DNA of 50,000 nt from Asterias amurensis (Eukaryota), in assembly GCF_032118995.1 (NCBI RefSeq), contig NC_092652.1:15638336-15688335 (forward strand), written 5' to 3'. The notes under the pieces were generated by a model. The model was not told the origin of the DNA. It ran no database searches and saw nothing but the letters and a program-made list of their open reading frames with translations. Positions 12,743-50,000 of the stretch are shown piece by piece. Position 1 is the first letter of the stretch. The number at the start of each line of letters is the position of its first letter. The position numbers and the translations under genes were made by a program.

Positions 12743-12803
12743 AGAAAATTGTTGTCAATCTCTCGTGAAATTTGATGACAATCAATACATTTTTATCATT
12801 GCT

Positions 12804-18757: not shown

Positions 18758-18783
18758 CAAATTAGGCACAATAGGGTTACTTC

Positions 18784-23600: not shown

Positions 23601-23680
23601 AGTTGTATAAAGTTAAAGATGGTGACAGAGAGGGCGTTTACTGGAGAGTCAACTACCCATTCCCAATGTCATCAAGAGAT
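23601..23680 (+). CDS. PCTP: PCTP-like coding exon 3. Translation: (K)LYKVKDGDREGVYWRVNYPFPMSSRD.
   Basis: Acceptor tcttttgcAG|AG completes the AAG codon. Matches PCTP 'KELYEQECNGETVVYWEVKYPFPMSNRD'. Donor GAT|GTATCT. The downstream in-frame run VSFLLL... does not match PCTP and is intronic. Confidence 0.8.
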
Positions 23681-24501
23681 GTATCTTTTTTATTATTGAA
23701 GAATCACTCTGAAACATTTTACTTCAAAGTAATGTGGTTATGTAAAAAGATGTCAGCCATTACCAATTTTGGCAATTATACCACAATTTGTTTGTGCTGG
23801 TTGAGCAGTGTGCAGCAGCTAGTTTATTTGTTTCTGATTGACGCGGAATGATGTCATGATAAATATCATTAGTCTTATGTGCCTAAACTAAGGCCTCATT
23901 GTTTTTTATATTCAAAATAATGAGTCTGTAAAGACATGTTTGGTAATTCCTGTAAAAAAATCAGTTTATTCGGATAGCTTTCTAACTATAAAAGCTCCTC
24001 CAGAACCATCCTTCAGACGAATATTTTTGTTATAAATATTTATAATGATTGAGTCATTTAGAGTGATTGCTGTGCTCCAAATCCCTGGCTAAAAATAAAT
24101 GTGTTTCCATTGTTATCACCAAGACGAAACAACCAAATTCGATGTTTTTCACAGGCTGACTGCTGTAATATTGAAAAATAACAATTTCAATATTTTGTAT
24201 AATAAACTGAACTTGAATCATTTTCATCAAATTAAACATGTACCAAATATGTATCTACAAATATATAAATTTTGTTCTATAGGCATTCACACACAGGTAA
24301 TGATAAACAATTGAGAAAGACTCATTTATCATACCTTATCTCCCAGTATTGGAAAATGGAGCAGAATGGGGTTTCGTCCAATAATTTTGGTCAACTTCTG
24401 GTCTTTAGGTCCATCTTTGACATTTTGACAATCTCAATTCGTTATTTTTTAAATTAATTCAACATTTTATTTTGAGGATTTCTTAACACTTTTGCGGACA
24501 G

Positions 24502-24670
24502 TACGCGTTTATACGAGAGTCAAGAGAGTTTGACATTAATGATGAGCATGTATGGGTGATCCTGGGTCGCAGTGTTCCCTTTGCCTCCAAACCGCCTGTG
24601 GCTGGTGTCATCAGGGTGTATGATTTCAAGCAAAGTATGGCAATCAAAGCAAGTGGTGATGGTTCAAAAG
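24502..24670 (+). CDS. PCTP: PCTP-like coding exon 4. Translation: YAFIRESREFDINDEHVWVILGRSVPFASKPPVAGVIRVYDFKQSMAIKASGDGSK, then 1 nt.
   Basis: Acceptor ggacAG|TAC; an in-frame TAA 15 nt upstream fixes the exon start. Aligns to PCTP 'YVYLRQRRDLDMEGRKIHVILARSTSMPQLGERSGVIRVKQYKQSLAIESDGKKGSK'. Donor G|GTAATG. Confidence 0.85.
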
Positions 24671-25391
24671 GTAATGAAATAGGTTAGACCCCTTGCATAT
24701 GACATTAGGCCAAGTAAAAAAAGAAACACGTTAAGCGTCCCCGCCCGCTTCTTTTTTAGAGGCTGCCTCCTTTTTTGTCTTCATTTATATATATTGTGTG
24801 TTTGAACAGTAGGAAAAACAATGGATTAATGAAATTTTTAAAAGAATGGCGGCCATCTTGAAAATAAAAAGTTAAAAGCCACTCCTTCCTTGTTTTTAGA
24901 AACCCGTATGCTAAACATGTTCCCTTCTTTTACTCGGCCTTACATGGTCACAATGCCCTCACTGAGATCAAAGGAAGAACTACAGTGAATGAGAATTGTA
25001 CTTGATAGTTTTCAAGATTGTAATGGCGGCCATCTTGGATTTAGAGGTCAGGATGATCCCCAAACAACTAACAATCTAGTGGATTTGTTATGCCAGAATT
25101 TTGAGTATTGTCAAAGGTATAAAAATGTCTCCCTTTTCCGGTTTCCAAACAGCATCATCTGTAGAAATTATTTCAGAGAAATCATTTCTTAATGATTTAT
25201 TATAAGATTAAGTAACAGTTTTTAAGAAACAGAACAATTAAACGTGTTCTGTTTTTTTTAATTTAACACATGCTTTCTAGTGTAAACTTCACCTGAAGAA
25301 ATGAACATGTGACTGGAATTTCAACATTCGGGGGCGATTGCAAGTTTTTGAAACTCTTTGTAATTAACAATATTGTCTTTGATATCTGTAG

Positions 25392-25459
25392 CGTTCATGC
25401 ATTACTATGACAACCCTAAAGGAATGATACCAACATGGTTGGTCAACTGGGCTGCCAAA
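25392..25459 (+). CDS. PCTP: PCTP-like coding exon 5. Translation: (A)FMHYYDNPKGMIPTWLVNWAAK.
   Basis: Acceptor tatctgtAG|CG and donor AAA|GTAAGT. Aligns to PCTP 'VFMYYFDNPGGQIPSWLINWAAK'. Confidence 0.85.
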
Positions 25460-26006
25460 GTAAGTCATCTTTCATCAATTCATGTTCCTTTTGTGTTGGA
25501 AAATGTACAATTAATCAGCTAAAATTTGCATATACTGCAATTGCTATTTCAACCTGTTTGTTTCTGGAAAATGTATTAGGATAAAGCTTATGAAGCACCA
25601 GTGGTTTGTTCTCCTTTATTATTTTTTGTTTTGTCATTTTCTGAATGGGGCCTTTTCCTACTCTAAGAAAAAAGCAGGGCTTCATTTCACAAAGCATTAA
25701 AATTCATTGTAAAGAACAATTGTCGGTGTAACAATAGTGATTTGTATAGTGACATAACACTTTACTTAAAAGCAACTACCATCGATTTTGCAGTTAAGAT
25801 CACTCTAAGCTCTTTTTCGGGTTATGAGTCAGTTTGACACAGGTTTAGGTCAGTTTGGTACAGATTTGGGGTCAAACTGACCCGTACATGGTTCAGACCC
25901 CTGGGGACAATTCTGGCCCAAAGTTTTTAGAGTGATAAGATTCTTTGTTTGTTATACATAAATATGAAATCTTAAAATATCAATATTTTTTTGTACCGTT
26001 TCCTAG

Positions 26007-26105
26007 ACTGGAATTCCTGGTTTCATGCAATCCATGACGGACGCATGTAATGGTTATCCAGAATACCTGGCTAAATTGGAAAGGAGTAAAGGCACGACCA
26101 GTTGA
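26007..26105 (+). CDS. PCTP: PCTP-like terminal coding exon. Translation: TGIPGFMQSMTDACNGYPEYLAKLERSKGTTS, then TGA stop at 26103-26105.
   Basis: Acceptor ccgtttccTAG|ACT. Aligns to PCTP C-terminus 'NGVPNFLKDMARACQNYLKKT*'. The summed CDS is about 217 aa versus 214 aa in human PCTP. Confidence 0.85.
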   Translation, partial: TGIPGFMQSMTDACNGYPEYLAKLERSKGTTS

Positions 26106-26188: not shown

Positions 26189-26678
26189 TAAAGGCACTGG
26201 ACACTATTGGTAGTTTAATTCTTATTTGAATACTTATAGTTATTAGCAAGACAGTTCTCTAAAGAACAAACTTTACCTGGCAAGTAGATATACTCATGTG
26301 GTTTCCGTAAAGTAAAAAATACACTGTTTATTGAAAATAGCTGTTGGCATACAAAGTTGCTTGGTAATGAGCAATTGGAGAGCTGTTAATAGTTTAAAAA
26401 ATTGTGAGAAATGGCTCCCTCTAAAGTAACATAGCTTTTGAAAAAGAGGCAATTCTCACTCCAAATTATTAAAATCCCCAGGCCCAAAATGAATTTAAAG
26501 GCATCTGAAAGCACACAAATTTGTGCAACAAGGCTGTTTTTTCTGTCATTATTCTCTTGCAGCTTCGACGACCAATTAAGTCAAAATTTTCACAGATATG
26601 TTGTTTTATGCATATGTTTGGTTACACCAAGTGTGAATTCTGGTCTTTGACAATTACCAATAGTGTCCAGTGCGTTTA
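26189..26678. mobile_element. MITE family A copy of about 490 bp with a roughly 110-bp foreign insert, lying about 85 bp downstream of the PCTP stop codon (probable 3' UTR).
   Basis: TIRs 'AAAGGCACTGGACACTATTGGTAGTTTAATTC' and 'GACAATTACCAATAGTGTCCAGTGCGTTTAAAGG'. The inserted segment 'agacagttctctaaagaacaaactttacctggcaagtagatatactcatgtggtttccgtaaag' recurs at 35815-35930. Confidence 0.75.
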
Positions 26679-27270
26679 AAGGGAAAGTATACATTGGTTT
26701 ATCACTCTTAAAATTAATGGCAATATAAACTTACTTTCGATAATAGCATTTTGAGAATCCTTTCACTCAGAAGTGATGTGATTATGTAAAAAGATATTGG
26801 TTTTTATGCCCCACAATTTGAATCAGAGAAGTGTTACTAACAGTAACGTCTCCCAGATTGTGTACTGTAAAAGTCAACATTTAAGTAAGATTAAAACAAT
26901 CGAACAGTTAAACAAAAACAAGGTACAGTATATATTATGTACTTTGCCGTTTAGGAGCTACTTGGGCCTCTAATTTGTTTGTTTTTTAAACAATGTTATT
27001 ATTGTAAAGTGATAACCATTCCTTTTTCATGGAGATTTTGTTATATATACCCTATACATTTGAACTTTTTAAGATGTCCAATTTCTAAGGATTTGACTAT
27101 TTTATTGGTTCCTGTTGAAATAGTATGTGTGTGTTTTAAGATTGTATTATTTCCAAACATTTAAAATATGCAGAGCGGTAATTTTTGACAGTCAAGGACT
27201 GCTATCTACTTAAAGTGTGTGCACAACATTGGCATGATTGAAAGTCAATTTCCACAGATATGCACATGAC

Positions 27271-28567: not shown

Positions 28568-28775
28568 AACTCAAACTTAAAGTCAGTGGACACTATTGGT
28601 ATTTACTCAACAAAAATGTGAGAAAAGACTCCCTCTGAAGTAACATATAGTTTTTGAGAAAGAAGTAATTTTCCACGAATTTGATTTCGAGACATCGGAA
28701 TTAGATTTTGAGGTCCCGAAATCAAGCATCGGAAAGATACACCAATTGAGAAGACTGTGTCTTCGACAATTATCC
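28568..28775. mobile_element. MITE family A copy, left part, interrupted by the LINE fragment.
   Basis: Begins with TIR 'AAAGTCAGTGGACACTATTGGTA' and carries the internal 'gatttcgagac...gaggtcccgaaatcaagc' palindrome. It ends at 'gacaattatcc', exactly where the LINE-derived sequence begins. Confidence 0.75.
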
Positions 28776-29567
28776 TTGCCAGGAAGAAGTGGAGGAACAG
28801 TTGATAGGAGGAGCAGACGAGTGGCTCCTGTCATGATCGCAGACCTTGATTTTGCAGATGACATTGTTCTGATATTTGATGAGATTGAGCAAGCTCAGCT
28901 GGTTCTGCAAAGAACAGAGACTGAATGTGCCAGAGTGGGGTTATTTCTCAACACCAGGAAGACAAAGTACATGATATTTAACAGACCACTGCCACTCCCT
29001 AAAAGACAACCATCAGTTCAGAGCTGAACTGGGTAACAGATTTCAAATACTTGGGCTCGTGGGTTAATGACACCGAGAAAGATGTGAAATGTCGTATCAC
29101 TCTTGCCTTAAAGAAACTCGACTCCATGAAGAACATTATGGTTAAGTCGGATGTCCCAGTCCCTGAAGGTGAAGTTCTTTACTGCCACTGTGGAATCAGT
29201 ACTGCTGTATGGATGTGAGTCTAGAGAAGAGACTGGACCGCTGCTATACAAGAATGCTTTGTTGTGTTAAACAGATTCATTAACTGGGAGAGGCATGTCA
29301 CAAACCTGGAACTCTATGGTGGACTACCAAAAGTTGGCACCAGGATTAGGGCAAGAAGGCTGAGACTAGCAGGTCACTGTCTCAGACATGCAGAGCTGGC
29401 AGTGAGCTAGCTTGTGCTATGGGCCCCTACTCAAGGTCACTGTTCCTGGGGCAGACCACCTTGTGCAAGGACACCTTGTGCAGGGACTCTAAGACTGTGT
29501 TGGGAAGAGCTGCGTACAGTAATGGAGGACCAATGAATGAATCGCATCGGCTGAATGAATGAATGAA
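28776..29567 (+). mobile_element. 5'-truncated, decayed non-LTR retrotransposon (LINE) fragment covering the 3' part of the reverse-transcriptase ORF plus a (GAATGAAT)n tail.
   Basis: Translations across three frames give 'IADLDFADDIVLIFDE...KTKYMIFNR', 'DFKYLGSWVNDTEKDVKCRITLALKKLDSMKNIM', 'VKFFTATVESVLLYGCES', and 'HVTNLELYGGLPKVGTRIRARRLRLAGHCLRH'. These are FADD/YADD-box and C-terminal RT motifs typical of the CR1/L2/RTE-type LINEs. Multiple frameshifts and stops; microsatellite tail at 29536-29567. Confidence 0.8.
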
Positions 29568-31250: not shown

Positions 31251-32171
31251 TTAGAATGACACGCCCACATCATGAATACCCTTTTATCGGAATTCCGATA
31301 AAGCTTTACAATCCCATCAAGGCTGTTGTTTGAGCCACGTGTGCGAGGTTGAAAGTAGAAAGACACGACCGTACTCACGACTACGCTATACTGTTCTCGC
31401 TGTACAATGTATGGTAATGTACATTTGTGTATGCACTGCATGCGTGTGCAGCGAACCGGGCCGGGGAACAGTACGTCAACAGCCTTGATCAAGGCTAGCT
31501 CGAAATAAGTTCAGTCTAATATTCTTGGTATGCAAAATTGATGGACGAAATCGTTCCCTGATACATTACATGGTATTTGGACCAGTAACATGTTTGCTTT
31601 TTGCAAGATTTTGTGCTCACGCAAAAAATTATGACCGCAGTTTTTCAGTAAAATGCACCACAAACACATAAGAAATAACTCACTTTGTTCAAAGTTGCAA
31701 GAACTTAAACAGCCAGTGAGTTACCACAAACTGGAGACACAACTTTGTTAAGTATAAATTCATTGCATAATTACCTGGACCCAATTTCCTAGAGCTGCTT
31801 ACGCACAAAAAGTAGCTAAGCACAATAAAATTATGCTTACCAGAAAAAGGTTACCAGCCAAACTGCCATGTTTCATGTAAAATTTGAGACTGGTATCCTG
31901 CTCATTTCTGTTTAGCAGACAATTCCTAAGCAATATTCTCTGCAGCTATGAAATCAGGCCCTTGAGTTATTATTCATCATTAAAAAATCTACCAACACTT
32001 GCTTTGTTTGTTGTAAGCATGAGGCAGTTTAATCCTCCCGTCATCGACAGTAAACTCTGCAACTCTGGGCTGAAGCCTCGCTACAATCTCCTCAACCAAG
32101 AGCCTGCCAATACAGTAAACTTCATCTGTTAAGTCGACATTTCGACTGGTTTTACCCAAACATTTAAATAA

Positions 32172-32336: not shown

Positions 32337-32809
32337 TTTGTTTAAAAAGCGATTTTTTAAAAACAATCGTAGACAATTGTGACAATCTGCTTGGTGTAAT
32401 GAATTTCTACAAAGATTGTACATTTCAAAAACTTTAAAACATTCTGCTAGGTGTTATGGGTTGTGTGTACACGCATGTACAAATAGATGACGCACTGATA
32501 CTAACTGGTACAATGATTGCGTTCCACGACCCCCAAAATGTGTACCTATGATTGTGGCTTTGCACATTATATACTTGTTTTCTGTCTGAATGAAGCTTGA
32601 CTGGTCTCCACCTAACAAAGCCATCAACATATTCTTCACTCGAATAACTTTGAATTTAGATAAAATTCTAAAGCGGTGTTCCAATGGGATTTTTTTTTTA
32701 TTACTGCGACTTTTCTGTTAGATGACAATTTAATCCAATGGGGACGCATGGGTTACTTACCTCCCTGTCAATTTACCGTGACCGTGATGTAAAACTAACA
32801 GGCCAAACA

Positions 32810-33235
32810 TAAATATCTAATAGATGTTAGGGATAAAGAATATAATTTTTTTTTTTTTACCCATACACCAATGTGTGTTAGCACTCTTACTCAGTATTTT
32901 CCCGAGTCCTATGAACAAATATCACAGGCATATTACTCGGGTGGGATTCGAACCCACGACCCTTGCATTTCTAGAGCAGTGTCTTCCCAACTAGCCTTGC
33001 GAGATTGGCCGGTAGCTAGAGGCAGTTCGAATCCTATGTTTTGGCAGCGGGTACCGCAACGATATATAATAGATGTTAAATTTGCATCGGGATAAAGAAT
33101 ATTAGTTTAGTTTTTTTTTACCCATACACCGATGTGTGTTAGCACTGTATACTCAGTACTTTCCCGAGTCCTGTGAAAAAAATATCACAGGCATATTACT
33201 CGGGTAGGATTCGAACATAAATATCATTAGACTAA
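32810..33235 (-). mobile_element. Tandem duplication (about 250 bp plus about 175 bp) of a minus-strand tRNA-derived SINE-like unit.
   Basis: The unit 'tttttttttacccatacacc(a/g)atgtgtgttagcact...ctcagta(t/c)tttcccgagtcct(a/g)tgaa...atatcacaggcatattactcgggt(g/a)ggattcgaac' is repeated. The reverse complement contains 'gggtcgtgggttcgaatcccaccc', a tRNA T-arm. Confidence 0.65.
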
Positions 33236-34113: not shown

Positions 34114-34295
34114 CTTATTACCGAGTAACAGACAAGGTATTGGACTCATATCTGGCATGAAGACTTTAGAATCTACATCATTCTTCCAAGTGACTACATG
34201 CTGAAATGACTTGATAGACGTGACATCAAACATGATAACACATGCAGATGCTTCCTGGTAATACACTCTCGTTAGATAACTGTTCCTCTCCGTAC
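34114..34295 (-). CDS. RAB29: Rab GTPase coding exon 3. Translation: (G)TERNSYLTRVYYQEASACVIMFDVTSIKSFQHVVTWKNDVDSKVFMPDMSPIPCLLLGNK.
   Basis: Acceptor ttttctactctgaAG|GT and donor AAG|GTATGT. Strong match to RAB29 '(Q)ERFTSMTRLYYRDASACVIMFDVTNATTFSNSQRWKQDLDSKLTLPNGEPVPCLLLANK'. The exon ends just before the expected CD of the NKxD G4 motif; downstream exons were not located. Confidence 0.8.
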
Positions 34296-34359
34296 CTTCA
34301 GAGTAGAAAATATAAAATAACAATAATAACTTCGGAGTAAAGTACACTCGCTTAAGACA

Positions 34360-34557
34360 GGCGCTCCAGAGTCACGCCAAACCATATTTTGAATTTAATA
34401 CATGAAAAGTTTGTTGTCTAAAACAGTTAGGAACGACGGGATGCGCTAGAAGTCGAAAGATTGACTGTTGCAGTCGTTCGGAATGACTCTAGAGAGAGAG
34501 AGCCTTGGTTTTAGACATCGATCTTGTCATGAACCAAACCTTTATGTAAACATTTTG
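34360..34557. repeat. Repeat family F, part 1 (split by a family-A MITE).
   Basis: 'ggcgctccagagtcacgcc...gattgactgttgcagtcgttcgg' matches the reverse complement of 40290-40330 ('ggcgctccagagtcgttccgaccgactgcaacagtcaatc'). Confidence 0.55.
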
Positions 34558-34946
34558 TTAAAGGCAGTGTGATGGACACTATTGGAAATTACTCAAAATA
34601 ATTATTAGCATAAAACCTTACTTGGTAACGAGTAATGGGGAGAGGTTGATCGTATAAAACATTGTGCGAAACGGCTCCCTCTGAAGTGCCAGAGTTTTCG
34701 AGAAAGAAGTAATTTTCCACGAATTTGATTTCGAGACCTCCAGACTTAGAACTTGAGGTCTCGAAATCAACCATCTAAACGCACACAACTTCGAGTGTCA
34801 AGGGTGATTTTTCTTTCATTATTATCTCACAAGTTCGATGTCCGATTGAGCTCATATTTTCACAGGTTTGTTATTTTATACATATGTTGAGATACACCAA
34901 CTGTGAAGGCTAGTCTTTGACAATTACCAATAGTGTCCACTGCCTA
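34558..34946. mobile_element. MITE family A full-length copy, inserted into another repeat (family F).
   Basis: TIRs 'AAAGGCAGTGTGATGGACACTATTGGAAATTACTCAAAATAATTATTAGC' and 'TGACAATTACCAATAGTGTCCACTGCCTAAG'. Palindrome 'gatttcgagacctccagacttagaacttgaggtctcgaaatcaacc'. Family-F sequence resumes on both sides. Confidence 0.85.
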
Positions 34947-35040
34947 AGTTCGCCTGTCTGAAACCAAAAATTGTTTGGGTCGACTTAGAATCGGTACTAT
35001 TCTATTTGGTTCGGCGCGACTCTGGCATGCCCTTTCAAAC
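34947..35040. repeat. Repeat family F, part 2.
   Basis: The reverse complement of 'gttcgcctgtctgaaaccaaaaattgtttgggtcgacttagaatcggtactattctatttggttcggcgcgactctggcatgcc' matches 40140-40250 ('ggcacgccagagtcgcgcagaaccaaatagagtagg...gactctaagtcgacccaaataactttttgtttcagatcacacaggcgaac'). Confidence 0.6.
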
Positions 35041-36094
35041 AGTCTTAAAAGTAAAAATTACCAGCAAATAAAGATCTACACAATATACGTTACATTTGTG
35101 TATAAGCATCATACTTAATTGACTTTACCACCGAGGGTTTTGTTAATAAACAAATTAAAATGAGTTTTGACGTCACAAATTAACAAAGAATAATTCACGT
35201 GAAAGTTGACTTGACCTGAACCCCTGTGAAACATTTACTGGAAAACAGCCATGTGACATCAACATTTGCATTCACATGAGGTATGAACCGGGCTTCAGAT
35301 GCAACAATGCTATTACAGGATTTGAGGGATTGCATGGTGAGGTATCAATATGTTTGGTTTGCCATCCATCTCAGCATTCCAACAGGTTGCCCTGCCAGCA
35401 ATTTGAGTCCTAAGACCTCTGGCTGGCTCTACGATGCTGTAAACACAGCCTGGCGCTTGCCAAAGTGAATAGTGCACAACCCTTTTTTTTTTCTCCTTTT
35501 TTTTTTCTTCGCACCTTGCACCATCAACCAATGGCGTCACCAACACACCATCCCAGTCATGGCTTCCTAAGTGAGCTGTATAGGGATTAATCTACTCAAA
35601 ACTCAAAACCAGTAATGTCCTGCTTTTTACCTACTACCCTGCTAGTCAAAACGTTGAGACCAATTCAAGAACTGACTCTGCTGTAGTGCAGGTAAACAAT
35701 CCTATAAGCTTAAGTAGTAGTCCCAGCCAATTTTCTATACCTTTCGCCCGGGTAGTAGTTAAATAGCAGAACAGTTCTTTTCAGAACTGAGAAGTCTCCA
35801 GACCATCCGATAAATCTACTCCGCGGAAAGAAAGACAGTTCTCTTAAGAACAAACTCTACCTGGCAAGTAGATACACATATGGTGTTACCGCAATATGTA
35901 AAAATGCTATTTCAATACATAAAAAGGGATAACCATACTTTGTACAAGTTACAACCATCAATATGGGGAAGGCATGGAATACTAACTGGTGTTGATACCA
36001 AAAAGTTCAAACAAAATCAACAGAGAACCAACAGGAGGTCCCTATTGCTGGTGTTTACACAAATGAGTGAGTGATTGTGTTGATCTATATTAGA

Positions 36095-36240
36095 AGTGAC
36101 GTGGAAGTGTCGTGGCCAAGGGGTCGAGAGCACCAAATTCAAACTCTGGTGTTTCTGATCAGCAGAGTGAGGGTTCAAGTCTTTTGTGTCCTTTAGCCAG
36201 ACACTTAACCATTGCTTTGTCAAAAGTATGTTAGCCAATA
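36095..36240 (+). mobile_element. tRNA-derived SINE-like element.
   Basis: 'gtggccaaggggtcgagagcaccaaattcaaactctggtgtttctgatcagcagagtgagggttcaagtcttttgtgtcctttagccagacacttaacc' has a D-loop-like 'gtggccaagggg' and a T-arm-like 'gggttcaagtc'. Confidence 0.5.
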
Positions 36241-36269
36241 CATCTACACTTGTTTTAAAAACAAGAGAA

Positions 36270-36410
36270 GGGAATAAAAGGGTAGCGACGAGTTCTTAAA
36301 CAGCCGTTTAAAACCAGCAGGGTCATGGCCCATCGCTCGGCCACGACCCTGCAAGGTTTTAAACGGCCATGTAAGAACAAGTCACTACTCTTTTATTCCC
36401 ATTCATGAAT
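36270..36410. mobile_element. Foldback or palindromic element (family C), copy 2.
   Basis: 'gggaataaaagggtagcgacgagttcttaaacagccgtttaaaaccagcagggtcatggccc...ggccatgtaagaacaagtcactactcttttattccc'. Confidence 0.7.
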
Positions 36411-36577
36411 GCCCTTTCGTCAAAAGGCGAAACAGTTTATTAGTTCTAGACACTCTGCCACTTGTTTCCTTAGCAAAGTTTCTGAATTCATATTGCTATT
36501 TAGAAGGGTTGTGTTTACATGATGTTATCATGAGAAAATAAGCAAAATTGTGCAAGTCTGTATACATTTAAAAATTT

Positions 36578-36956
36578 TTAAAGGCAGTGGACACTATTGG
36601 TAATTGTCAAAGACCAGTCTTTTCACTTTGTGTATCTCAAAATATGCAAACAAACCTGTGAAATTTGAGCTCAATTGGTCATCAAAGTTGCGAGATAATA
36701 ATGATAGAAAAAATATCGTTGTCACACGGAGTTGTGTGCTTTCAGATGCTTGATTTTAAGACCTCAAAGTTCTAAATCTGAGGTCTCGAAATCAAATTGG
36801 TGGAAAATTGCTTCTTTCTCGAAAACTATTCCACTTCAGAAGAAGCCGTTTCTCATAATGTTTTATACTACCACCCTCTCCCCATTACTGATACCAAATA
36901 AGGTTTAATGCTAATAATTGTTTTGAGAAATTACCAATAGTGTCCACTGTCTTTAA
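36578..36956. mobile_element. MITE family A full-length copy.
   Basis: TIRs 'AAAGGCAGTGGACACTATTGGTAATTGTCAAAGACCAG' and 'GAGAAATTACCAATAGTGTCCACTGTCTTTAAA'. Palindrome 'gattttaagacctcaaagttctaaatctgaggtctcgaaatcaaattgg'. Confidence 0.85.
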
Positions 36957-37170
36957 ATGCAGGGTGTACATTTGGTAATTACTCCACAATTTAACGAGCA
37001 TAAAAACTTACAAGGTAAAGAGCACTGGAGAGCTGTTGATTCTTTCAAACATTGTAGAAAGGACACCCTTTGAAGTAGGGTGATTTTTCAGTTCAACCCA
37101 AAAATTGAATTAGAAGGCCTTTCTAAGGCATCTGAGGCACCAAATATTACGCATCAATGGTGTTATTATT
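36957..37170. mobile_element. Diverged MITE family A-like fragment.
   Basis: 'GGGTGTACATTTGGTAATTACTCCACAATTTAACGAGCATAAAAACTTAC...agagctgttgattctttcaaacattgtagaaaggacaccctttgaagta' parallels the family A terminus and core. Confidence 0.5.
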
Positions 37171-37360
37171 TTGATTTCGAGGTTGAACAAAGAATTGACT
37201 AGAGTGGGATACAACCGTTAACTGCCGTGTAGCCAGGGATCACACCCAAATTACGATACAACCTGGGAAGTGGTAGCTCGGGGATCACCTTAAGGGGATG
37301 CGACTTTTTGTTTCAAATATCAATACAAACCACAAGGGAAACTGACTGGGTAAATTTGTA

Positions 37361-37470
37361 AATGATTTCGAGGTTGAACAAAGAATTGACTAGAGTGGGA
37401 TTCGAACCAACGACCTCCGCATTAACGTGCTGGCGCTCTACCAACTCAGCTATCTAGCCGTATATTGGCA
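37361..37470 (-). pseudogene. tRNA-like sequence (tRNA pseudogene or tRNA-derived SINE head) on the minus strand.
   Basis: The reverse complement of 37393-37460 reads 'GGCTAGATAGCTGAGTTGGTAGAGCGCCAGCACGTTAATGCGGAGGTCGTTGGTTCGAATCCCACTCT'. It has an acceptor-like 5' end, a D-arm GCTGAGTTGGTAGAGC, and a T-arm GGTTCGAATCC, but the anticodon stem does not pair cleanly. The adjacent 'gatttcgaggttgaacaaagaattgactagagtggga' is duplicated at 37172 and 37361. Confidence 0.45.
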
Positions 37471-38349
37471 GTGTCCCTATTTTGTCCATATCTTTGTTCG
37501 GGGGTGCCAGTCAGAAGCCATACAACCGTGTTATCATTTTATCGCAACTTTGATGACCGATTGAGCCCAAATTTTCACAGGTTTGTTACAATGTTAGTTA
37601 CGATTATATATATATATTTAATTATATAGCAATCTCCAGATGAGCAGACCCTACCGTGCCATTTCAGAATTGTGTATGGGTGTTCAAACGTACCTTACGT
37701 AACTACGCAAAAGCCTGCCCTTAATCATGTGGCGTAGCAACTGTCTCGATAGTCTGAGGAATTCAATCGTAAGCGATGCATTGCAACTGGGCGATTCGTT
37801 GCACCAGACTCTCGCAAATTGCTTATTGTTCATGTCAGAATTTAACCTCATGGAGACATGTGTATAATTGTATTTCCCTCCTCAGTAGCTGTGAGCTTAG
37901 TAATAGTTTGCTGACCTCATGAATAATTCATCAGTAGGAAGGGCCAGTAGGTGGTTATTTGTTATGTTTAAATGCTTTGCCTTATTTGGGTCTTGAGTCT
38001 TTATTTGAGTTTTGAATGGGTGAAATTTTGGGGTATGTTGAGTACATGGGTGCGGTCAGTGAGAGTGAGGGTTGCTAGCTGTGTGTTTGGTAGAGGGTGG
38101 TCATTCTCGTAGCGTCTTAGATAGAGAGAGGATCCTTGATGCAGTGACAGAAAATTGCACTGGGTATTAGTCTCAGCAAATCTTTGTGATTGTGCGCCAT
38201 AATTTGCTAAATTCAGAGCAGATTTTGAGGCTGCTGTTAATCTTAAGGCAAATTGGTTGAAGTGAGACAACAACTCTGAGAGCTGGACTTCAAGAGCTAC
38301 ATATACTATTATGAAAACCTTGCGGGGTAAGCTGTGACAGTACATATTT

Positions 38350-38402
38350 GTATGCATTATATGTTGGGATACACACCAAGTAAAGAAACTGGTCTTTGAC
38401 AA
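38350..38402. mobile_element. MITE family A 3' terminal fragment.
   Basis: 'gttgggatacacaccaagtaaagaaactggtctttgacaattaccaaaagt' matches the '...gagatacaccaa.tg.ga.gactggtctttgacaattaccaatagtg' end. Confidence 0.5.
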
Positions 38403-38485
38403 TTACCAAAAGTAAACCATGCTTAAAAATGGGCCTGTGGCTTGAAAACAGATTGAGGAGCACATTGAGCCGTAAAGGTGTTTAC

Positions 38486-38557
38486 CTGAAATATCCCAAA
38501 GCTGAAGTGTAATAACTTCATCCTCTGATCTTTGGATCTTCTTCAGACAAAAATCAA
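38486..38557 (-). CDS. RAB29: Rab GTPase coding exon 2. Translation: (V)DFCLKKIQRSEDEVITLQLWDIS, then 1 nt (G).
   Basis: Acceptor ttccttttcAG|TT on the minus strand. G+TT makes Val, restoring the TIGVDF Rab motif. Aligns to RAB29 'VDFALKVLQWSDYEIVRLQLWDIAG'. Donor CAG|GTAAAC. Confidence 0.8.
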
Positions 38558-38855
38558 CTGAAAAGGAACAATACAAGCTGTATCAAAGTACAAGATAACA
38601 AAGAACATAGGCATACAGTACTTGGGATATTTTAGAGTTTTGTTTATTGTTTGTTATTTGTTGTTGTCTTTTTTTCTTTTCCCTTTTTATTGGGGGGGGG
38701 GGGGGTATTTAAACATTATAAAACTCCCTTTTCATTGGGGGGGGGGGGGTATTTGAAAATTATAAAAATCCATGTGAATGTGCTTCTAAAAACACACTGA
38801 CCACGATTTGGAAATAGAAGTCTAGAAGAATGTAGATTTATTGATATTTTTCTTT

Positions 38856-39125
38856 CAAAGGCAGAGGACACTACTGAAAATAATTTTAGCACAAAAAATT
38901 TACTTGGAAAACAAGTAATGGATAGCTGTTTTCAACTAAAATAGTTAAATTTGATTTCGAGAACTAAGAATCTGATTTAGAATCAGAAAAGAATCTGAAA
39001 AACACACAACGTTGTGTGACAAGGGTATTTCTTCTTCCATTATTATCTCGCAACTTCGACGACCAATTATTTTGTGCATAATTTTATACAATGTTGAGAT
39101 CCACCAAGTGAAAAGACTGGTCTTG
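38856..39125. mobile_element. Diverged MITE family A copy.
   Basis: 'AAAGGCAGAGGACACTACTGAAAATAATTTTAGCAC...gatttcgagaactaagaatctgatttagaatcag...attattatctcgcaacttcgacgaccaatt...gactggtcttgacaattacc'. Confidence 0.7.
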
Positions 39126-39126
39126 A

Positions 39127-39321
39127 CAATTACCTTAAAAGACACTATAGACACTAAGCGAAAAATTACTTCTTTCTCAAAAACTTTGTCACTTCAGAGA
39201 GAGAGAGCAGTTTCTCACAATGTTTTATATTATCAACCTCTCCTCATCTCGTAACCAAGTAAGGTTTTATGCCAAAAACTATTTTGAGTAATTACCATGC
39301 AATAGTGTCCACAGCCTTTAA
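39127..39321. mobile_element. MITE family A copy, internally deleted, ending 13 bp from the donor site of Rab exon 1.
   Basis: 'AAAGACACTATAGACACTAAGCG...cacttcagagagagagagcagtttctcacaatgttttatattatcaacctctcctcatctcgtaaccaagtaaggttttatgccaaaaactattttgagtaattaccatgcaatagtgtccacagcctttaag'. Confidence 0.75.
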
Positions 39322-39334
39322 GTGACATACCCAC

Positions 39335-39446
39335 CTCCTATTGTTCTCTTATGGTCGAATCCATTATGACCATAACATTGTACAAATGCAGTCTTTCCAA
39401 CTAGGGATTCACCAACTATGATGATCTTGAACAACTTCTTGTTCAT
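39335..39446 (-). CDS. RAB29: Rab GTPase (RAB29/RAB7L1, RAB32/38 subfamily) coding exon 1. Translation: MNKKLFKIIIVGESLVGKTAFVQCYGHNGFDHKRTIG, then 1 nt (G).
   Basis: Minus-strand ATG at 39446-39444. Contains the P-loop G1 motif GESLVGKT. Aligns to human RAB29 'LFKVLVVGDAAVGKTSLVQRYSQDSFSKHYKSTVG(VDF)'. Donor G|GTGGGT, given by plus-strand AC at 39333-39334. Confidence 0.8.
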
Positions 39447-40124
39447 TGTAGGAGAAACGTCGAAAAGGAACTAGGCAGAGAGTTGGTTGTCATTGCATTT
39501 TAAAACCACTGATGCAGGTTTTTGGTTAGAGTTGATGTAAATGTCTCCACAACATTGCAGTCTTGTGTCTTTGGATTTAGGAATTGTCAGCTAACTCTGT
39601 AAAAAGCTACGACCATAAACAAAGAGTAAGAAATTAAAGAAATATAATATCATGAAAACTTAGTTTGATAGAGAAAAGAGAAGAGGGGGTCGGGGCCTTA
39701 AAAAACAAATGGCAATTCTTTTCACCCATACTGTCCGTAAAAATAAAGTATTTGTGGATAGTTTTGTCATCACTACTCTTCGACTGTTAATAGACTTCGA
39801 CTTTAAAAAAAAAAAATCTGTATCACAGTTCGTCGACATCTGGATTATAATGCTACCTATTCATGGGATCTAATCCAAGTTCACTGGAACCAACAACGGT
39901 TTTTTTAAAACATCAATTTGACATTAGGCCTATCTGGTACAGGTATGTCCAAAACACCCAATTAGCCTATTCTGAAGTATGGTGGACACATGAGTGCACT
40001 GAGATTTGGATGTATACAGACAAATCTAACCAGACCTATTTTTTAATATCTCAAAATGGCTTATTGCTGTGGGTTGGGTCTATTCCAAGTTGATGGAACC
40101 AAAAGTAATTAACTTAGGGCTTCC

Positions 40125-40420
40125 TCCCGATTCAGACAGGCACGCCAGAGTCGCGCAGAACCAAATAGAGTAGGAGGGACTCTAAGTCGACCCAAATAAC
40201 TTTTTGTTTCAGATCACACAGGCGAACTTAACAATTATAAAAATTACATTGGCTCGACTCATGACCATGCAGTTAGACATCTGAAACCAAGGCGCTCCAG
40301 AGTCGTTCCGACCGACTGCAACAGTCAATCTTTTGACTTCCTAGCGTGTCCAGTTGCTCCTATGTTTCAGACGTCGAACTTAACATGTACTTAATTCAGA
40401 AAGAGTCGCGCCTGTCTGAA
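40125..40420. repeat. Repeat family F, uninterrupted copy in opposite orientation.
   Basis: Matches both parts at 34360-35040. Includes the internal inverted pair 'cagacaggcgcgactct' / 'agagtcgcgcctgtctg'. Confidence 0.6.
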
Positions 40421-40984
40421 ACTGGTGTAAGTCCAGTAACTCGGACTACATGGAAAGTGTGGTAATTGTGTATTAAGTCACTTTGCAATGACATGCCACC
40501 GCTTGTCAGCCTGACGTGGGCAGTTTCAAGATGGCGACAGGTCTCGAGTCTCCTTTTGAATAGTTGACCTAGCTGTGTCTGTATCTTGTTCCTTTGCCAC
40601 CTCTGGACTAACACCATAGCACCAATGCTACTACAGACAAGCATCCACCGAGAAAGTCCACAGACAAGCAACTTGCTTTGTTATAGACTGTATACCAACA
40701 CCTATGGGAGGCAATCCAGTGTCATAGACTGACTTGCTTTTGACATGGGCAACTTGACAACACTACACTACCACTGGTCTAGTCAGTACATGTACATGGA
40801 CAGAACAACCCAAACCTGAGATGCTAATGGGTGTGGGTATAGGGACACTCTCAGAAAACAAAAGTGACATTCCAACTCACAGCTGTCAACTCACTTTGAA
40901 GAGTAAATGGCAAGACATTTTTTTCCTATCTGAATCTGAATCTTGGCAAAGCATATAGCATATAGAATACAGGACTGATACTTC

Positions 40985-41160
40985 ACGGAGGCAACGGAGG
41001 CGATGGCCTCCATGCCCCTGGTCATTGCCTTGGTGCCCTTGAAATGCTCCAGTCGAAATTTACAATTTCCTCATAGGGTGCCCTTTACGATGACGAAAAT
41101 GCCTTGGTGCCTTTGCCCTTTCAAAATAGAGCATCAGGCCTGAGAATGCCAATGGAAACA
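40985..41160. repeat. Inverted partial copy of the 'gggcaccaaggca' repeat.
   Basis: The reverse complement of 'ggcaacggaggcgatggcctccatgcccctggtcattgccttggtgcccttgaaa...cctcatagggtgccctttacgatgacgaaaatgccttggtgcctttgccctttcaaa' matches 16890-17030. Confidence 0.7.
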
Positions 41161-41454
41161 TCACAACTTTTTGTTGAGAAGACATTGACAATTAAGAATT
41201 TTCAATTTTAGAAACGGGAGGGAAACCCCTAAAGACCCCTTGTATGCACGTCACACGCGGCGAGTGATGCCACGCTCACCAACTACTCATCATGTTGGTG
41301 GGCAGTTAGGTTTACGTGTATTAACGCAGCATCTCCTAAAAATGTGCACTTCCACTGCATAACGCAGGGTATAGAGTTATATTTAAAAACGCACAGTATG
41401 GCACATTCAATATTGATGATATTGGGTCAATAGGGAAAAGCCACACAGTTAGGA

Positions 41455-45660: not shown

Positions 45661-47118
45661 TAAATAAAAGTGGAAGACACTTTTAAATAAAAGTTTCTTA
45701 CATGCACCAATCCTACTCCTTCAGAAACACAGGAAGCCTCAGCAGCATAGCTACAGGGGAGATGTGGATACCCCCCCCCCCATTTTTAATGCAACACTCA
45801 AAAGGTTAATCAACATCGTAATGCATATTGCAACATAGATAACCACTTTCGGTAGTTTTTATGTTAGCGCAACCTATTGGACAGAATTACTGGTATGAAT
45901 TTTGATTATTATTTTGCCAACCACTTGGCAGAGATTTGTGCTTAGCACAGTAGGTCTTCCTGGGACATAATGAGTCTTCACTTCACAAGGCAAACTGAAG
46001 AAGATTTGCATATTTGCCTCCTCATTGCATTCATAGTTAAATTTAGTGTATGGTAAGAAATGCTTACCAGGAAAACTTGCTAACCCCACCCTCTTTCAGG
46101 TACACCACTGGCCTTACAGACAGGTCAACTCAAGACAAAATGCAAGATTTTTGTTTTAGGATTCCATGTACATAAACCCACAATACAGAATGTAAACCTA
46201 TCCTTGTGGGACCCAGCCACTGCTTCACAATCTGAACCATTTACACACTAAACTGATCATGAATGGTTGTGTACACTTTGATCATCTGATCAACGTCAAA
46301 AGCTATAGAATGTGTACAAAGCTAATTAGGATAAGCATGATGAATGGATTTTTGAATGATTTGAATGATATCAAATGCTCAATCAGTCGGAGGGTTAAAA
46401 CCTCTAAAATGTCACAATTGCACTAAATCGAATGTCATTCTCCAATGTGCCATATTTTTGACCGTGTGAGAGCACTCTCAAATATATTTGTATCACTTCC
46501 GGGGGTACATGTATATTCATTCATACCCATCACAGTTATCAACGACTGAAACACCACTATGGACATCTTATCCACCATGGACAATAACACCTTTAACGGA
46601 GCCGTGACATATTCAACCTTTAAAGCAAATTTGAACTTCGCCGCAACATAAGTGACAGAACGCCCAAAACTGTGCAGGCCGAATCGTGTATACCCCCGGA
46701 AGTGATAATATACTATTGAGAATGCCCTTACACAGTAAAAAAAAAGTTACATTCTTTTGGAATCTAGCATTCATTTTACATTTATTTACCCCTCCACCCC
46801 ACCCCAATTTGATCTACATGTTAATCTGCATCAACTGATATCCCAAATTCCTTTGAGGAATTTTGGTCAGAAAATGATGAAAATATAGGTCAATAAAATC
46901 TCAAAATGTAAAATAAAAAAAATTAAAAAAAATTCTCACCTATGGGTGACTTGAAATAGTTAGACATGAAAATTATTATAAATCGGTTCCGAATATTGTT
47001 AAACATTTCAATAAATAACCAAAAAAGTATTTCACTTGTAAAATTGGACATCATCGAACTCGAAACCCAACCATATCAAAAGTGTTGTTTACTCATTTAT
47101 GTCAGGCCAAATCTTATT

Positions 47119-47140
47119 TGTTGTTGTTGTTGTTGTTGTT
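47119..47140. repeat. (TTG)n / (CAA)n microsatellite immediately 3' of the AGPS stop codon.
   Basis: 'ttgttgttgttgttgttgtt'. Confidence 0.85.
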
Positions 47141-47146
47141 TTTTCT

Positions 47147-47268
47147 TCAGAGCAGGCAATCATTCCCAAAGATATTCTGAGGGTCGAGATGCTTCTTGAT
47201 TGCTCGTAGCGTATCCAAGCCGGGCTGCGAGATGGCTTTTGGCATCCACTGTTTCCGCACCTTACCAA
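47147..47268 (-). CDS. AGPS: AGPS-like terminal coding exon. Translation: (V)GKVRKQWMPKAISQPGLDTLRAIKKHLDPQNIFGNDCLL, then TGA stop.
   Basis: Acceptor tttttttaaccAG|TT on the minus strand, phase 1. The C-terminus matches the AGPS/FAD-oxidase family end '...VGKLRKQW...[25 protein letters not shown]'. The stop is the reverse complement of plus 47147-47149, followed by an (AAC)n microsatellite in the presumptive 3' UTR. Confidence 0.7.
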
Positions 47269-47754
47269 CTGGTTAAAAAAATTGGAAAATTGTGCAATTA
47301 AAAACCATTTCATTTATTAACTCTGGTTGTGAAGCCAAGGACTCTCAGAAAAGGGAAACTTAATCACTGTATTAATTAAGAACCCAAGGAAGAAAAGACA
47401 AGGAAGGAAGTTTCAGCTTTAGATGTGGGAGGAAAACCCCAGAGAATTATTCCAGGATAAACCCACGCAGTCAAGTGGAGACTGAAAGCCTACAGTGCCC
47501 TCGGCATGATTCCACCTGGGATCCTAGAAGTTGAATGCAAGGAAAGATACCATTCCGCCAACCCGGCCACACTTTTATGAGGATGGTTCAAAATATATTG
47601 AACATTTTGAATGTGACTAATATAAAGACTTAAATATTGACTATGAATATGACCAAATTGAGGGCTACAGGTATAGTGCGTTCTGCTTCACCAGCCAAGC
47701 TCCTAGTGGATGATACCCATATCTACATCCTTACAGACTGTGAAAGGTACATGT

Positions 47755-47900
47755 ATCACCCTGTTTCAGCCCCAGGAGTAGATAATAACATGCCCCTAGT
47801 AGCAGTTGATTTGGGTCAACAGTTCAACTTGGTTACGTGCAGCCTTCACCTTGAAGTGCATGGCTGTCTAGCCTTGGGCAAGTGTGTACAACATGTTACT
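47755..47900. repeat. Interspersed repeat family E copy (inside the AGPS intron).
   Basis: 'caccctgtttcagccccaggagtagataataacatgcccctagtagcagttgatttgggtcaacag...gccttcaccttgaagtgcatggctg' versus 33915-34050. Confidence 0.6.
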
Positions 47901-49450
47901 ATACATTCTTCTCTTATGCAGCTAGCGTAGAAATTTGGCGCTTGAACAGTAAGCGAAAAATGATGAGTGCAGAATTGGGCGGTACGCAGAGCCATGAAAT
48001 TGGGCCCAGGTGGTTTTCAGAACTTGATCAATCAAAATTTTATGAAGAATGCTCAAACTTTCTTCAGAGCATACAAATTATGTTAAGTTGTGAAACCATC
48101 AATTCTGATTAAGACCAGTAACTCAATTACTAACAGAGAAACCGCCACGATGACCAAGACCTACCTAGGCATAGCAAAGGTCCCTACTTCGAACAGAGCC
48201 TAAGCATCATATTTGAGAGAAAACAATGTGACGCGGATCTTCAACAGGTAAGTTTGAATTTTATTACCGAATCATCTCTTAGTGGTAAGAAAAGAAGAAT
48301 GATATTTTTACCTCCGTGGTGATGCGATAGACTTCCTCCAAGACCCAAGATCTCGTCCCTAGCTGCAGCCTAGAGGTAGAAATTGAATGAACCGTCTTGT
48401 TAACCCTGTTGTTAACTTGAATTTTGACATAACACATAAAACAAGGGTTGTGAACACAAGGGTTGTGAACACAACACCTGACCACTCCAGCGTGATAAAC
48501 ACATAAAAGCTCTTGTTCAAAGACCAATTCAACAACCTGTATTATCAACTTCACAATGTTTTACAGCCAATTTAAGTTTTTTGCTCATTTGTCAACGCTA
48601 AATTATTTCAGCAGTCTGTAAGAGAGACATGTCTTTCTATGATCATGATCATGGAGAATGCTTGAAATTAGTGAACAAAAATCTTTATAATTTGATAAGA
48701 ATTTTTTTTAAATCATTTATCTTGTTATCATTATTAGACAAATTCATAACTTTTTCAGAGATGAATGTCACAAATCAAAGGATACACCCTGTATTAGCAT
48801 TTTGCACTAATGACGACACTTTTGCTCAAAAAATCAGACAAACTTTTCACCACTCATGTAAGCAATCACAAAATTTGTGTGCACTAAACTGCAGTAGTAA
48901 TCAGTGTGTCAGACTGCAGCAGTACAGTACACACAAGTCAACATAAACCACTGCCAATGGCTTGGACATGAATGCTCTCCGAGATCCCGCTACTTGCATT
49001 ACTTCACCATAAATGTAGTTAGCTTCCATTTTTTGGGCAGAGTGCTAGTTACCCATCATTTGGCTTTTTTAGGGGGACATTTTGTTTACAAAAGAGTCCT
49101 ACTCTCCCACTATGTATGACATAGCTTTTCTCTCCACTTATTTATTTTCTTTTGTCGTCTTCAGTTAGCCTGGTTTAACATTCTTTGTATTTTGTCGTCA
49201 GTATTTTGTATTGTCATTGTGTAATTGTCTTGCCCTTGTTTCTTCTTCGATGTTTATTTGTTTGTTTTTGGTTGGTTGTGTGTTTTCTTGTCTGTATAAA
49301 GACTGTTGTCTACAAGCCACGGCTTAACTAACAGCCTTAACTAACATAGTTAATTCCTAGTTATTAATTTATTATTTGCTTTTAGATTATATTGTTTTTT
49401 TGGTATAATTTAATGCACTTTAGATTTTTAAAATTTCTATGTACTGTTTA

Positions 49451-49834
<384 letters not shown>

Positions 49835-50000
49835 TCAGGGAGGATAGTTTTGTTTATGCAAGTCGCCAGACACACAAGTCATGAAGGCCACTTTAAGGTG
49901 TGGGCTACAATTATTTTTTTGCCAGGGGCCATTGCTACCGACTCCTAGGGCTGAAACAGGGTTCCCCCATTTACAGTCCATACGGATGTAGACTTGGGTC

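Follow-up and report, generated by a model that had tools for sequence, protein, structure and literature searches.

Some small GTPases work with a natural replacement of the Gln residue of switch II, which is Thr in Rap1 (Thr61), Ser in Rab24, and Leu in Rab25. Like members of the Rab32LO/Rab32B class, these proteins hold a complete G domain, the G4 and G5 motifs, and lipidation signals, and the substituted residue is conserved across species. In the Rab32LO/Rab32B class, the residue at the Gln position of the DxxGQ motif is normally His (PMC4728774), as seen in P0058, P0060, P0072, and P0083. The Rab29/Rab7L1 class, exemplified by human RAB29 (PDB 8FO2 and 6HH2), bears as its mark a FALK stretch after switch I (PMC4728774). 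A Rab29-like copy from the sea star Asterias amurensis, which holds at the Gln position the same residue as Rap1, has none of the features that the Gln-less GTPases keep, and its substituted residue is not conserved between species. In the first-pass annotation of this copy, the invariance of the Gln was overstated for the Rab32 group.

The copy is located in the window analysed here, a stretch of 50,000 nucleotides of the contig NC_092652.1 (assembly GCF_032118995.1, positions 15,638,336 to 15,688,335), and its features are collected in Table 1. It is very probably an unprocessed (intron-containing) pseudogene originating from a DNA-level duplication rather than a novel type of GTPase, because an internal exon has been lost, the reading frame breaks off before the end of the gene, and its exons change as fast as its introns. 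Like unprocessed pseudogenes in general, it retains introns, shows a dN/dS near 1, a premature stop, and exon deletions that differ between lineages, and has an intact parent elsewhere.

Table 1. Features of the Rab29-like copy of A. amurensis, in window coordinates (a slash marks the splice junction).
Feature	Position	Strand	Details
Exon 1 (coding part)	39335..39446	minus	encodes MNKKLFKIIIVGESLVGKTAFVQCYGHNGFDHKRTIG; starts with ATG; donor ATAGGAG/gtgggt
Exon 2	38486..38557	minus	encodes (V)DFCLKKIQRSEDEVITLQLWDIS; acceptor ttttcag/TTGATT; donor TTTCAG/gtaaac
Exon 3	34114..34295	minus	encodes (G)TERNSYLTRVYYQEASACVIMFDVTSIKSFQHVVTWKNDVDSKVFMPDMSPIPCLLLGNK; acceptor ctctgaag/GTACGG; donor AATAAG/gtatgt
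6.3-kb block with exons 1-2 and 5' flank	35119..41425		present in the window; missing at A. rubens L001 13817-13850
Deletion junction, ~390 bp lost	32795..32820	minus	breakpoint about 32806/32807; from alignment with the A. rubens locus
Remnant of the last exon (exon 5)	31980..32103	minus	acceptor ttggcag/G kept

Exons 1, 2, and 3, with WDISGTERN, were all found where the first-pass annotation had placed them, their splice signals are all standard, and the peptide quoted was exact. Once spliced, they give an open peptide of 122 residues. The two unusual residues reported are also present: Thr at the position of the switch-II Gln (codon ACG, 34293-34291; CAG in the canonical gene), and Asn at that of the conserved Phe that follows (codon AAC, 34284-34282; TTT in the canonical gene). 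Since both codons lie inside exon 3, these replacements are independent of the exon 2-3 join. The concern that a micro-exon could restore GQERF turned out to be unfounded. The (G)TERN stretch is colinear with the canonical (G)QERF, and such a rescue is implausible because the exon 3 acceptor of the canonical copy (ENA contig L002) falls at the same nucleotide (gaag/GT CAG GAG AGG TTT).

The remaining motifs of these exons are conserved to different degrees. The P-loop (G1, GxxxxGK[ST]) is present in exon 1 as GESLVGKT, with GE instead of the canonical GD before it, and the switch-I Thr of G2 is kept (HKRTIG). However, compared with canonical Rab29, switch I has suffered a two-residue deletion and the change of its conserved Tyr to His, whereas in exon 2 the FALK motif has become FCLK and WDIA has become WDIS. 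G3 reads DISGT, without the catalytic Gln. The Ala of FALK, which is Cys in this copy, is at least 90% conserved among 60 homologues. Seven of the 38 columns conserved in at least 90% of 60 full-length homologues are altered or missing, and the copy deviates at 13 of the 54 sites of exons 1-2 where the A. rubens canonical protein and that of Patiria are identical.

The placement of the copy in the Rab29/Rab7L1 family, within the Rab32 group, is supported by database, PDB, and gene-structure matches. Its similarity to Rab29 is far above chance, and by descent it belongs to the Rab29/Rab7L1 class (Rab32 group, Rab supergroup III). Exon 3 matched human RAB29 with a tblastn E value of 1e-20, and the A. 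rubens Rab-7L1-like protein with one of 2e-32. The best database protein was found by phmmer at E = 1.7e-54, and at least the 30 top matches are named Rab-7L1. Using as query an assembled sequence of 159 residues (exons 1-3 plus LLVEE...KCW), which is not a real predicted product, the best PDB match was the solved human Rab29 chain 8FO2_B (E = 3.6e-40), and the Pfam Ras profile, 162 positions long, was matched from position 1 to 118 at 92 bits, versus 150 bits for the canonical protein. Canonical Rab29/Rab7L1 is the best match throughout, and the A. rubens member (P0001) is 77% identical to the copy across exons 1-3. Both share YY.EASACVIMFDVT, DSK, and P.PCLLLGNK, together with the intron positions and identical exon 3 boundaries. 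The database search returned no protein identical or nearly identical to the copy, no matching transcript-derived protein was found among 5.8 billion sequences, and the Rfam and tRNA scans yielded nothing bearing on this gene.

The decisive defects are located at 32.8-32.0 kb, downstream of the range of the first-pass annotation, which ended at exon 3. The deletion took all of exon 4 (122 nt, SDLDEHKVSDEEIKAMSEDHNFVGWSKISVKDNYNLEESM-), including its acceptor and donor, and its junction is free of Ns and gaps. In A. rubens, this exon occupies L001 15476-15597 (donor ATGAT/gtaagt), and the content lost with it comprises the D of NKxD, helix 4, strand 6, and the G5 motif. Searches of the whole window for exon-4-like sequence by blastn (word 7) and tblastn (E <= 100) gave only chance-level matches. 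One tblastn candidate for an exon 4 remnant upstream of exon 5, 'MLSHHSFIPLFKCLGKTSRNV', was ruled out, as it belongs to an intron and is conserved in that of A. rubens, while the true exon 4 of L001 sits about 1 kb further upstream. The deletion has been observed in a single assembly, and in principle it could represent a haplotype-specific state or an assembly error.

The 122 nt of exon 4 are not divisible by 3, and exons 3 and 5 therefore join out of frame. Their sole join reads GCT CTT GGT TGA (stop codon at 32094-32092) and ends a product of 125 residues as ...LLLGNK-ALG-stop. An in-frame skipping of exon 4, which would give a 159-residue product, was ruled out by the A. rubens donor, which makes exon 4 122 nt long. 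The G4 motif is incomplete, since its N and K end exon 3 and the x-D was in exon 4, the join giving NKAL instead, and the G5 motif S[AV]K is missing, as ISVK belonged to the deleted exon. With exon 4 deleted and exon 5 out of frame, the part of the fold formed by helix 4, strand 6, and helix 5 is gone. In its ancestral frame, the last exon encodes LLVEEIVARLQPRVAEFTVDDGRIKLPHAYNKQSKCW followed by TAG at 31991-31989, whereas the canonical one ends in KCCWIF and TAA at 31982-31980. Thus, unlike canonical Rab29, the copy has no C-terminal Cys motif (CC, CXC, or CCXn) for geranylgeranylation, its ancestral-frame tail being KCW-stop, out of frame with exon 3. Downstream stops or frameshifts, which had been named as the sign of a pseudogene, are therefore present: the GNK-ALG-stop join that follows the loss of exon 4, and the early TAG by which the CC motif is cut off.

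The window is collinear with Asterias rubens chromosome LR699094.1 over about 47 kb, with 85-96% DNA identity and identical neighbours, and the copy is flanked by an AGPS-like FAD-oxidase gene and a START-domain gene. Its A. rubens orthologue (locus L001) is P0085, annotated by NCBI as the protein 'ras-related protein Rab-7L1-like'. This annotation runs counter to a pseudogene, and transcription at that locus is possible. Both copies share the derived KCW-stop, a five-residue tail deletion, SFQHVVTWKN, SPIP, and E/T/I substitutions. Unlike the window copy, P0085 holds Arg (CGT) instead of Thr at the switch-II Gln codon, retains exon 4, and lacks exons 1-2. Both proteins differ at 13 of 61 exon 3 residues, and the 5' exons of the P0085 gene model show indels of 2 and 4 nt in the window. 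Since positions 35119-35317 of the 6.3-kb block align with an intron of the canonical gene, the block was deleted in A. rubens. In both species, the last exon reads TGT TGG TAG, as opposed to the canonical KCCWIF or KCCWLL, which indicates that the prenylation motif was lost before the split.

A. rubens has its canonical WDIAGQERF gene on a chromosome-scale contig of 25.66 Mb, distinct from the one of 22.89 Mb that carries P0085. The introns flanking exon 3 of the copy are 79-81% identical to those of the canonical gene, and because they can still be aligned, the copy must come from DNA duplication and not from retroposition. The dS between paralogue and canonical gene is 0.30-0.39, versus 0.08-0.10 between the two species, which places the duplication well before the species split. 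The canonical comparison sequence is the L002 contig with canonical exon 3, and the dN/dS against the canonical gene covers exon 3 only.

The window copy and its A. rubens counterpart differ in exons 3 and 5 by 21.2 nonsynonymous and 4.8 synonymous changes (dN/dS = 1.25). An omega of 0.3 or less is rejected (P = 0.002) and an omega of 1 fits (P = 0.49), while an omega of 0.5 is not rejected (P = 0.058) in this test, which is based on only 26 substitutions. For exon 3 alone, dN/dS is 1.4. The divergence of exon 3 is 12.2%, versus 10.3-13.3% in its flanking introns, and that of exon 5 is 3.6%, versus 3.1-5.2% in its flanks. A disabling lesion and neutral substitutions thus occur together in this copy, and an intact parent gene is seen in the sister species. 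Nine of the 22 differences in exon 3 fall inside the 18 nt of the switch-II codons (Fisher P = 2.8e-5). Such a dense cluster is unusual for an unprocessed pseudogene, and plain neutral decay does not predict clustering.

The main reading of the first-pass annotation, a functional lineage-specific atypical Rab29 paralogue with slow GTP hydrolysis, is exceedingly doubtful; exon 4 would then be missing only by an assembly or haplotype artefact. The open 122-codon frame, the canonical splice sites, and the intact GxxxxGKT and switch-I Thr, which also count against a pseudogene, would suit such a protein, as would the existence of working GTPases with natural Gln replacements; a long-dead gene need not keep exons 1-3 open. 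However, even if exon 4 were present, the last exon would still end in KCW-stop without CC in both species, the deletion junction does not look like a gap in the assembly, changes have also hit FALK, the switch-I Tyr, and GD(x)xVGKT, and exons diverge like introns with a dN/dS about 1. Moreover, the orthologue lacks exons 1-2, the Gln site is T in one species and R in the other, and exon 3 differs at over a fifth of its residues. Nor is there much reason to regard the locus as the only Rab29 gene of the species, now undergoing unitary loss instead of being a redundant duplicate. Although the window holds no second Rab29 copy, this reading is barely conceivable, given that synteny and shared derived changes make the locus the orthologue of the second A. 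rubens copy, that A. rubens carries a canonical gene on a separate chromosome as well, and that the dS values date the duplication well before the split.

Other proposals assign a role to what is left. The locus could be expressed with a non-GTPase function, either as a 125-residue truncated Rab, for example one that binds GEFs, effectors, or pathogen proteins as a decoy or dominant-negative form, or as a regulatory non-coding RNA. The frame and splice sites kept in exons 1-3, the gene model at the A. rubens locus, and the substitutions clustered in switch-II codons are in line with this proposal, which is nevertheless very unlikely. The window copy retains exons 1-3 and that of A. rubens exons 3-5, so that they overlap in exon 3 only and have no conserved product in common; exon 3 changes as fast as the introns; a G domain broken off at strand 5 misses one third of the fold; and the search of 5.8 billion sequences gave no matching transcript-derived protein. 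It is also highly improbable that diversifying selection acted on switch II of the Rab29 duplicate before the copy was disabled, or acts even now on the 125-residue fragment, as the clustered differences and the different replacement of the Gln in each lineage (Thr, Arg) might suggest. The Rab32 family is a target of bacterial proteases and GAPs, and a decoy for pathogen effectors would be one possible role. If this were true, the loss of the Gln would be adaptive and not simple decay.

Under the pseudogene interpretation, the canonical sea star Rab29/Rab7L1 gene would have been duplicated at the DNA level, with the second copy landing between the AGPS-like and START-domain genes. Its decay began before the split from A. 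rubens, with the loss of the CC prenylation motif (TGC TGG to TGG TAG) and the five-residue tail deletion, and the switch-II Gln was most likely gone already by then. After the split, the structural hits differed, exon 4 being lost in A. amurensis and exons 1-2 in A. rubens, while point substitutions built up at the intron rate with a dN/dS about 1. The changes of Gln to Thr and Phe to Asn would reflect relaxed constraint instead of adaptation towards a GTP-locked Rab. Judging from its sequence, the copy is not expected to produce a functional G protein. Any transcript would encode at most a 125-residue fragment without the G4 Asp, G5, helix 4, strand 6, helix 5, and lipid anchor, and would likely be a target of nonsense-mediated decay. 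Between the two possibilities raised by the first-pass annotation, the decaying paralogue is therefore upheld, whereas the loss of exon 4, the TAG, and the dN/dS about 1 speak against a lineage-specific hydrolysis-impaired Rab.

Exons 1-3 alone would lead a gene finder or a reader to call this locus an 'atypical GTP-locked Rab29'. The finding is mainly a matter of annotation, since the copies of both species are pseudogenes with complementary exon losses, even though NCBI lists that of A. rubens as a protein. It also argues that active-site substitutions should be checked by tracing the gene to its end, comparing the orthologous locus, and contrasting exon with intron divergence. The window copy opens no new question in GTPase biology, and its recognition removes a tempting false lead on Rab29/LRRK2-pathway biology in echinoderms.

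Three minus-strand exons in the window, numbered after the ancestral five-exon gene, encode a 122-residue peptide whose similarity to Rab29/Rab7L1 is far above chance. This peptide matches P0001, the canonical A. rubens "Rab-7L1-like isoform X2", with E = 1.7e-54 and 77% identity, and exon 3 alone matches an A. rubens protein by tblastn with E = 2e-32. Human Rab29 (chain 8FO2_B) is matched with E = 3.6e-40, the query being a 159-residue construct (later rejected) and not the bare 122-residue peptide; the aligned residues, 4–126, are those of the exon 1–3 peptide. The window itself, with ~38% G+C and many SINE-like repeats, is animal DNA. The exons give exactly the peptide read in the first-pass annotation, with switch II as WDISGTERN (Thr codon ACG, 34293–34291; Asn codon AAC, 34284–34282). 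The doubt raised there about the exon 2–3 join can be dropped, since both codons lie within exon 3 and the acceptor (...ctctgaag/GT ACG GAG AGG AAC) falls at the same nucleotide as in the canonical gene (...ctttgaag/GT CAG GAG AGG TTT) on L002, an ENA marine metagenome contig whose exon 3 product is identical to P0001 residues 64–124.

Features of the window and of the A. rubens exons compared with them
Feature	Position	Strand	Remarks
Exon 1	39446–39335	−	standard splice signals
Exon 2	38557–38486	−	standard splice signals
Exon 3	34295–34114	−	standard splice signals
Exon 5	acceptor at 32103	−	ttggcag/G; retained
A. rubens exon 4	L001 15476–15597		122 nt; tttag/TCTGATCTG...CCATGAT/gtaagt; encodes SDLDEHKVSDEEIKAMSEDHNFVGWSKISVKDNYNLEESM(M)
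A. rubens exon 5	starts L001 16637
AGPS-like FAD_binding_4/FAD-oxidase_C gene, 3' part	~47100–50000 (one exon near 49.7 kb)	−	conserved with A. rubens
START-domain gene	~18700–26100 (exons near 23.6 and 24.5 kb)	+	conserved with A. rubens
~380 bp repeat	34558–34945, 36578–36957, 12802–13177, 15934–16320	both
~380 bp repeat, further copies	8131–8515, 11557–11913, 6862–7233, 26360–26694, and more	both
tRNA-like sequence, intron 2	37387–37459	−	Rfam tRNA 41.8 bits; ARAGORN assigns no anticodon
tRNA-Val(cac)	10735–10810	−	called by ARAGORN alone
Minisatellite	21185–22035		26-nt unit ACCTAGGAACAATTCAATTCACTAGG, ~34 copies, 123-nt higher-order period
Reverse-transcriptase-like ORFs	28644–29407	+	..FADDIVLIFDE..
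~60-nt element, two inverted copies	34980–35040, 40140–40200	−, −	gggtcgacttaga..ctatttggtt..gcgcgactctgg
44-nt unit, intron 1	38680–38771		run of 13–14 C (minus strand), two tandem copies

Downstream stops or frameshifts, named beforehand as signs of a pseudogene, are present. Alignment to L001, the A. rubens locus on LR699094.1, leaves a clean ~390 bp gap at window 32806/32807 (in one assembly), with exon 4, its acceptor and its donor all gone, and no trace of exon 4 was found across the whole window. Lost with this exon are the NKxD Asp (G4), the G5 motif (S-V-K), helix 4, strand 6 and the beginning of helix 5. Its length, 122 nt, is not a multiple of 3, so splicing exon 3 straight to exon 5, the only join left, shifts the frame and reads ...LLLGNK ALG stop (TGA at 32094–32092), 125 residues in total. 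An in-frame 159-residue product skipping exon 4 was rejected on the same grounds; the Pfam Ras match of this construct scores 92 bits, vs 150 for the canonical protein, and reaches only position 118 of the 162-position profile.

The database search also returned P0085, a second A. rubens "Rab-7L1-like" protein, whose switch II reads GRERF and which shares SFQHVVTWKN and SPIP with the window gene, both absent from the canonical protein. Its locus, at ~10.64 Mb of LR699094.1, is flanked by a FAD_binding_4/FAD-oxidase_C gene and a START-domain gene and is collinear with the window over ~47 kb at 85–96% nucleotide identity; the window gene is therefore the positional orthologue of P0085. P0001 (WDIAGQERF, tail KCCWIF) is encoded on a different chromosome-scale contig (25.66 Mb vs 22.89 Mb). 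Both introns flanking exon 3 align with L002 at 79–81% identity, so the second copy arose by DNA-level duplication, introns included. The exon 3 dS is 0.30–0.39 between paralogue and canonical gene and 0.08–0.10 between the paralogues of the two species, which dates the duplication to well before the two species diverged.

The last exon ends, in the ancestral frame of both species, in AAG TGT TGG TAG ATT TTT TAA (KCW-stop-IF-stop), where canonical tails read KCCWIF in A. rubens and KCCWLL in Patiria. Thus, the double-Cys geranylgeranylation motif was destroyed before the split; C-terminal prenylation has a described role in Rab membrane insertion (PMC7818423). A five-residue tail deletion is likewise common to both. 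Exons 1 and 2 are absent in A. rubens, where the 6.3-kb window block 41425–35119 is reduced to ~30 bp; a part of this block, 35119–35317, aligns with the canonical intron, so A. rubens suffered a deletion and the window no insertion. Hence the species keep complementary halves of the gene, their overlap being confined to exon 3 and the disabled last exon. The odd non-Rab N-terminus of the P0085 model stems from two upstream "exons" (L001 10001–10066 and 12221–12325), which correspond to window 42780–42702 and 41997–41918, with indels of 2 and 4 nt in the window, and are not conserved coding sequence. These indels, together with the splicing of the RefSeq model after KQSK, which sidesteps the shared TAG, indicate that P0085 is probably a mis-annotated pseudogene too.

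Several repeats occupy the locus and its surroundings. The ~380 bp repeat (core GTGGACACTATTGGTAATT...) has at least 10 copies in the window, two of them within intron 2 of the pseudogene; the one at 34558–34945 is absent from the canonical intron and so was inserted after the duplication. The tRNA-like sequence of intron 2 probably represents the head of a SINE derived from a tRNA, not a genuine tRNA gene. The copies of the ~60-nt element, which resembles a dispersed repeat and might have promoted rearrangements at this locus, flank the exon 1–2 part of the locus, and window 40139–40401 is matched at ~72% by L001 13934–14195 and L002 354–575. Farther away, the minisatellite sits in the stretch that is syntenic with the START-domain gene of A. 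rubens, and the reverse-transcriptase-like ORFs belong to a LINE-type retrotransposon fragment found at the orthologous position, L001 17234–18437.

Between the window and the A. rubens paralogue, exons 3 and 5 differ by 21.2 nonsynonymous and 4.8 synonymous substitutions (dN/dS = 1.25; 1.4 for exon 3 alone). These 26 substitutions fit omega = 1 (P = 0.49) and reject omega <= 0.3 (P = 0.002), with omega = 0.5 a borderline case (P = 0.058). Exon divergence equals that of the flanks (12.2% vs 10.3–13.3% for exon 3 and its introns; 3.6% vs 3.1–5.2% for exon 5). Of the 54 exon 1–2 positions at which canonical A. rubens and Patiria agree, 13 are changed in the window; switch I has lost two residues and its conserved Tyr is His, the GD before the P-loop is GE, and FALK, a motif of Rab29's family (PMC4728774), is FCLK. 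The Gln site holds Thr (ACG) in the window, Arg (CGT) in the A. rubens paralogue and Gln (CAG) in the canonical gene. Nine of the 22 nucleotide differences in exon 3 between species are packed into the 18 nt directly following the GGT codon, that is, in switch II (Fisher P = 2.8e-5), where both copies depart from the canonical sequence, each differently. This cluster could reflect chance, multi-nucleotide mutation or past diversifying selection; the last, for which the cluster is the sole support, is very unlikely.

Rap1, Rab24 and Rab25 carry Thr, Ser and Leu, respectively, at the Gln position. The premise of an invariant Gln is too strong for the Rab32 group, as His is the usual residue in the Rab32LO/Rab32B class (PMC4728774), and WDIAGHERF occurs in full-length Rab32B-like proteins, e.g., from Tachypleus and Varroa (P0058, P0060, P0072, P0083). 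However, all these proteins are otherwise complete and conserved, whereas the window gene is neither: it belongs to Rab29/Rab7L1 by descent, but as a functional member it fails at G3, G4, G5, FALK and the prenylation motif.

The locus is thus very probably an unprocessed pseudogene, a redundant Rab29 duplicate in neutral decay whose parent copy is known from A. rubens. Of the two readings proposed beforehand, the decaying paralogue agrees with the exon 4 deletion, the KCW-stop and the dN/dS, and the atypical, hydrolysis-impaired Rab is not supported; the Gln to Thr change would be one among many unconstrained substitutions, and no marker of a GTP-locked state. A functional atypical Rab lacking exon 4 merely through assembly error would fit a gap seen in one assembly, but the tail lesion shared with A. 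rubens makes it highly improbable. The 125-residue frame could be taken for a functional truncated fragment, or the locus for the source of a functional RNA; given exons diverging like their flanks, there is very little chance of either. Loss of the species' sole Rab29 copy is very improbable for a copy duplicated well before the split. This duplicated pseudogene was previously undescribed but is unremarkable: what was seen in the sequence is genuine, and its biology is ordinary. In practice, the consequence is that the A. rubens "Rab-7L1-like" model P0085 is probably a pseudogene as well.
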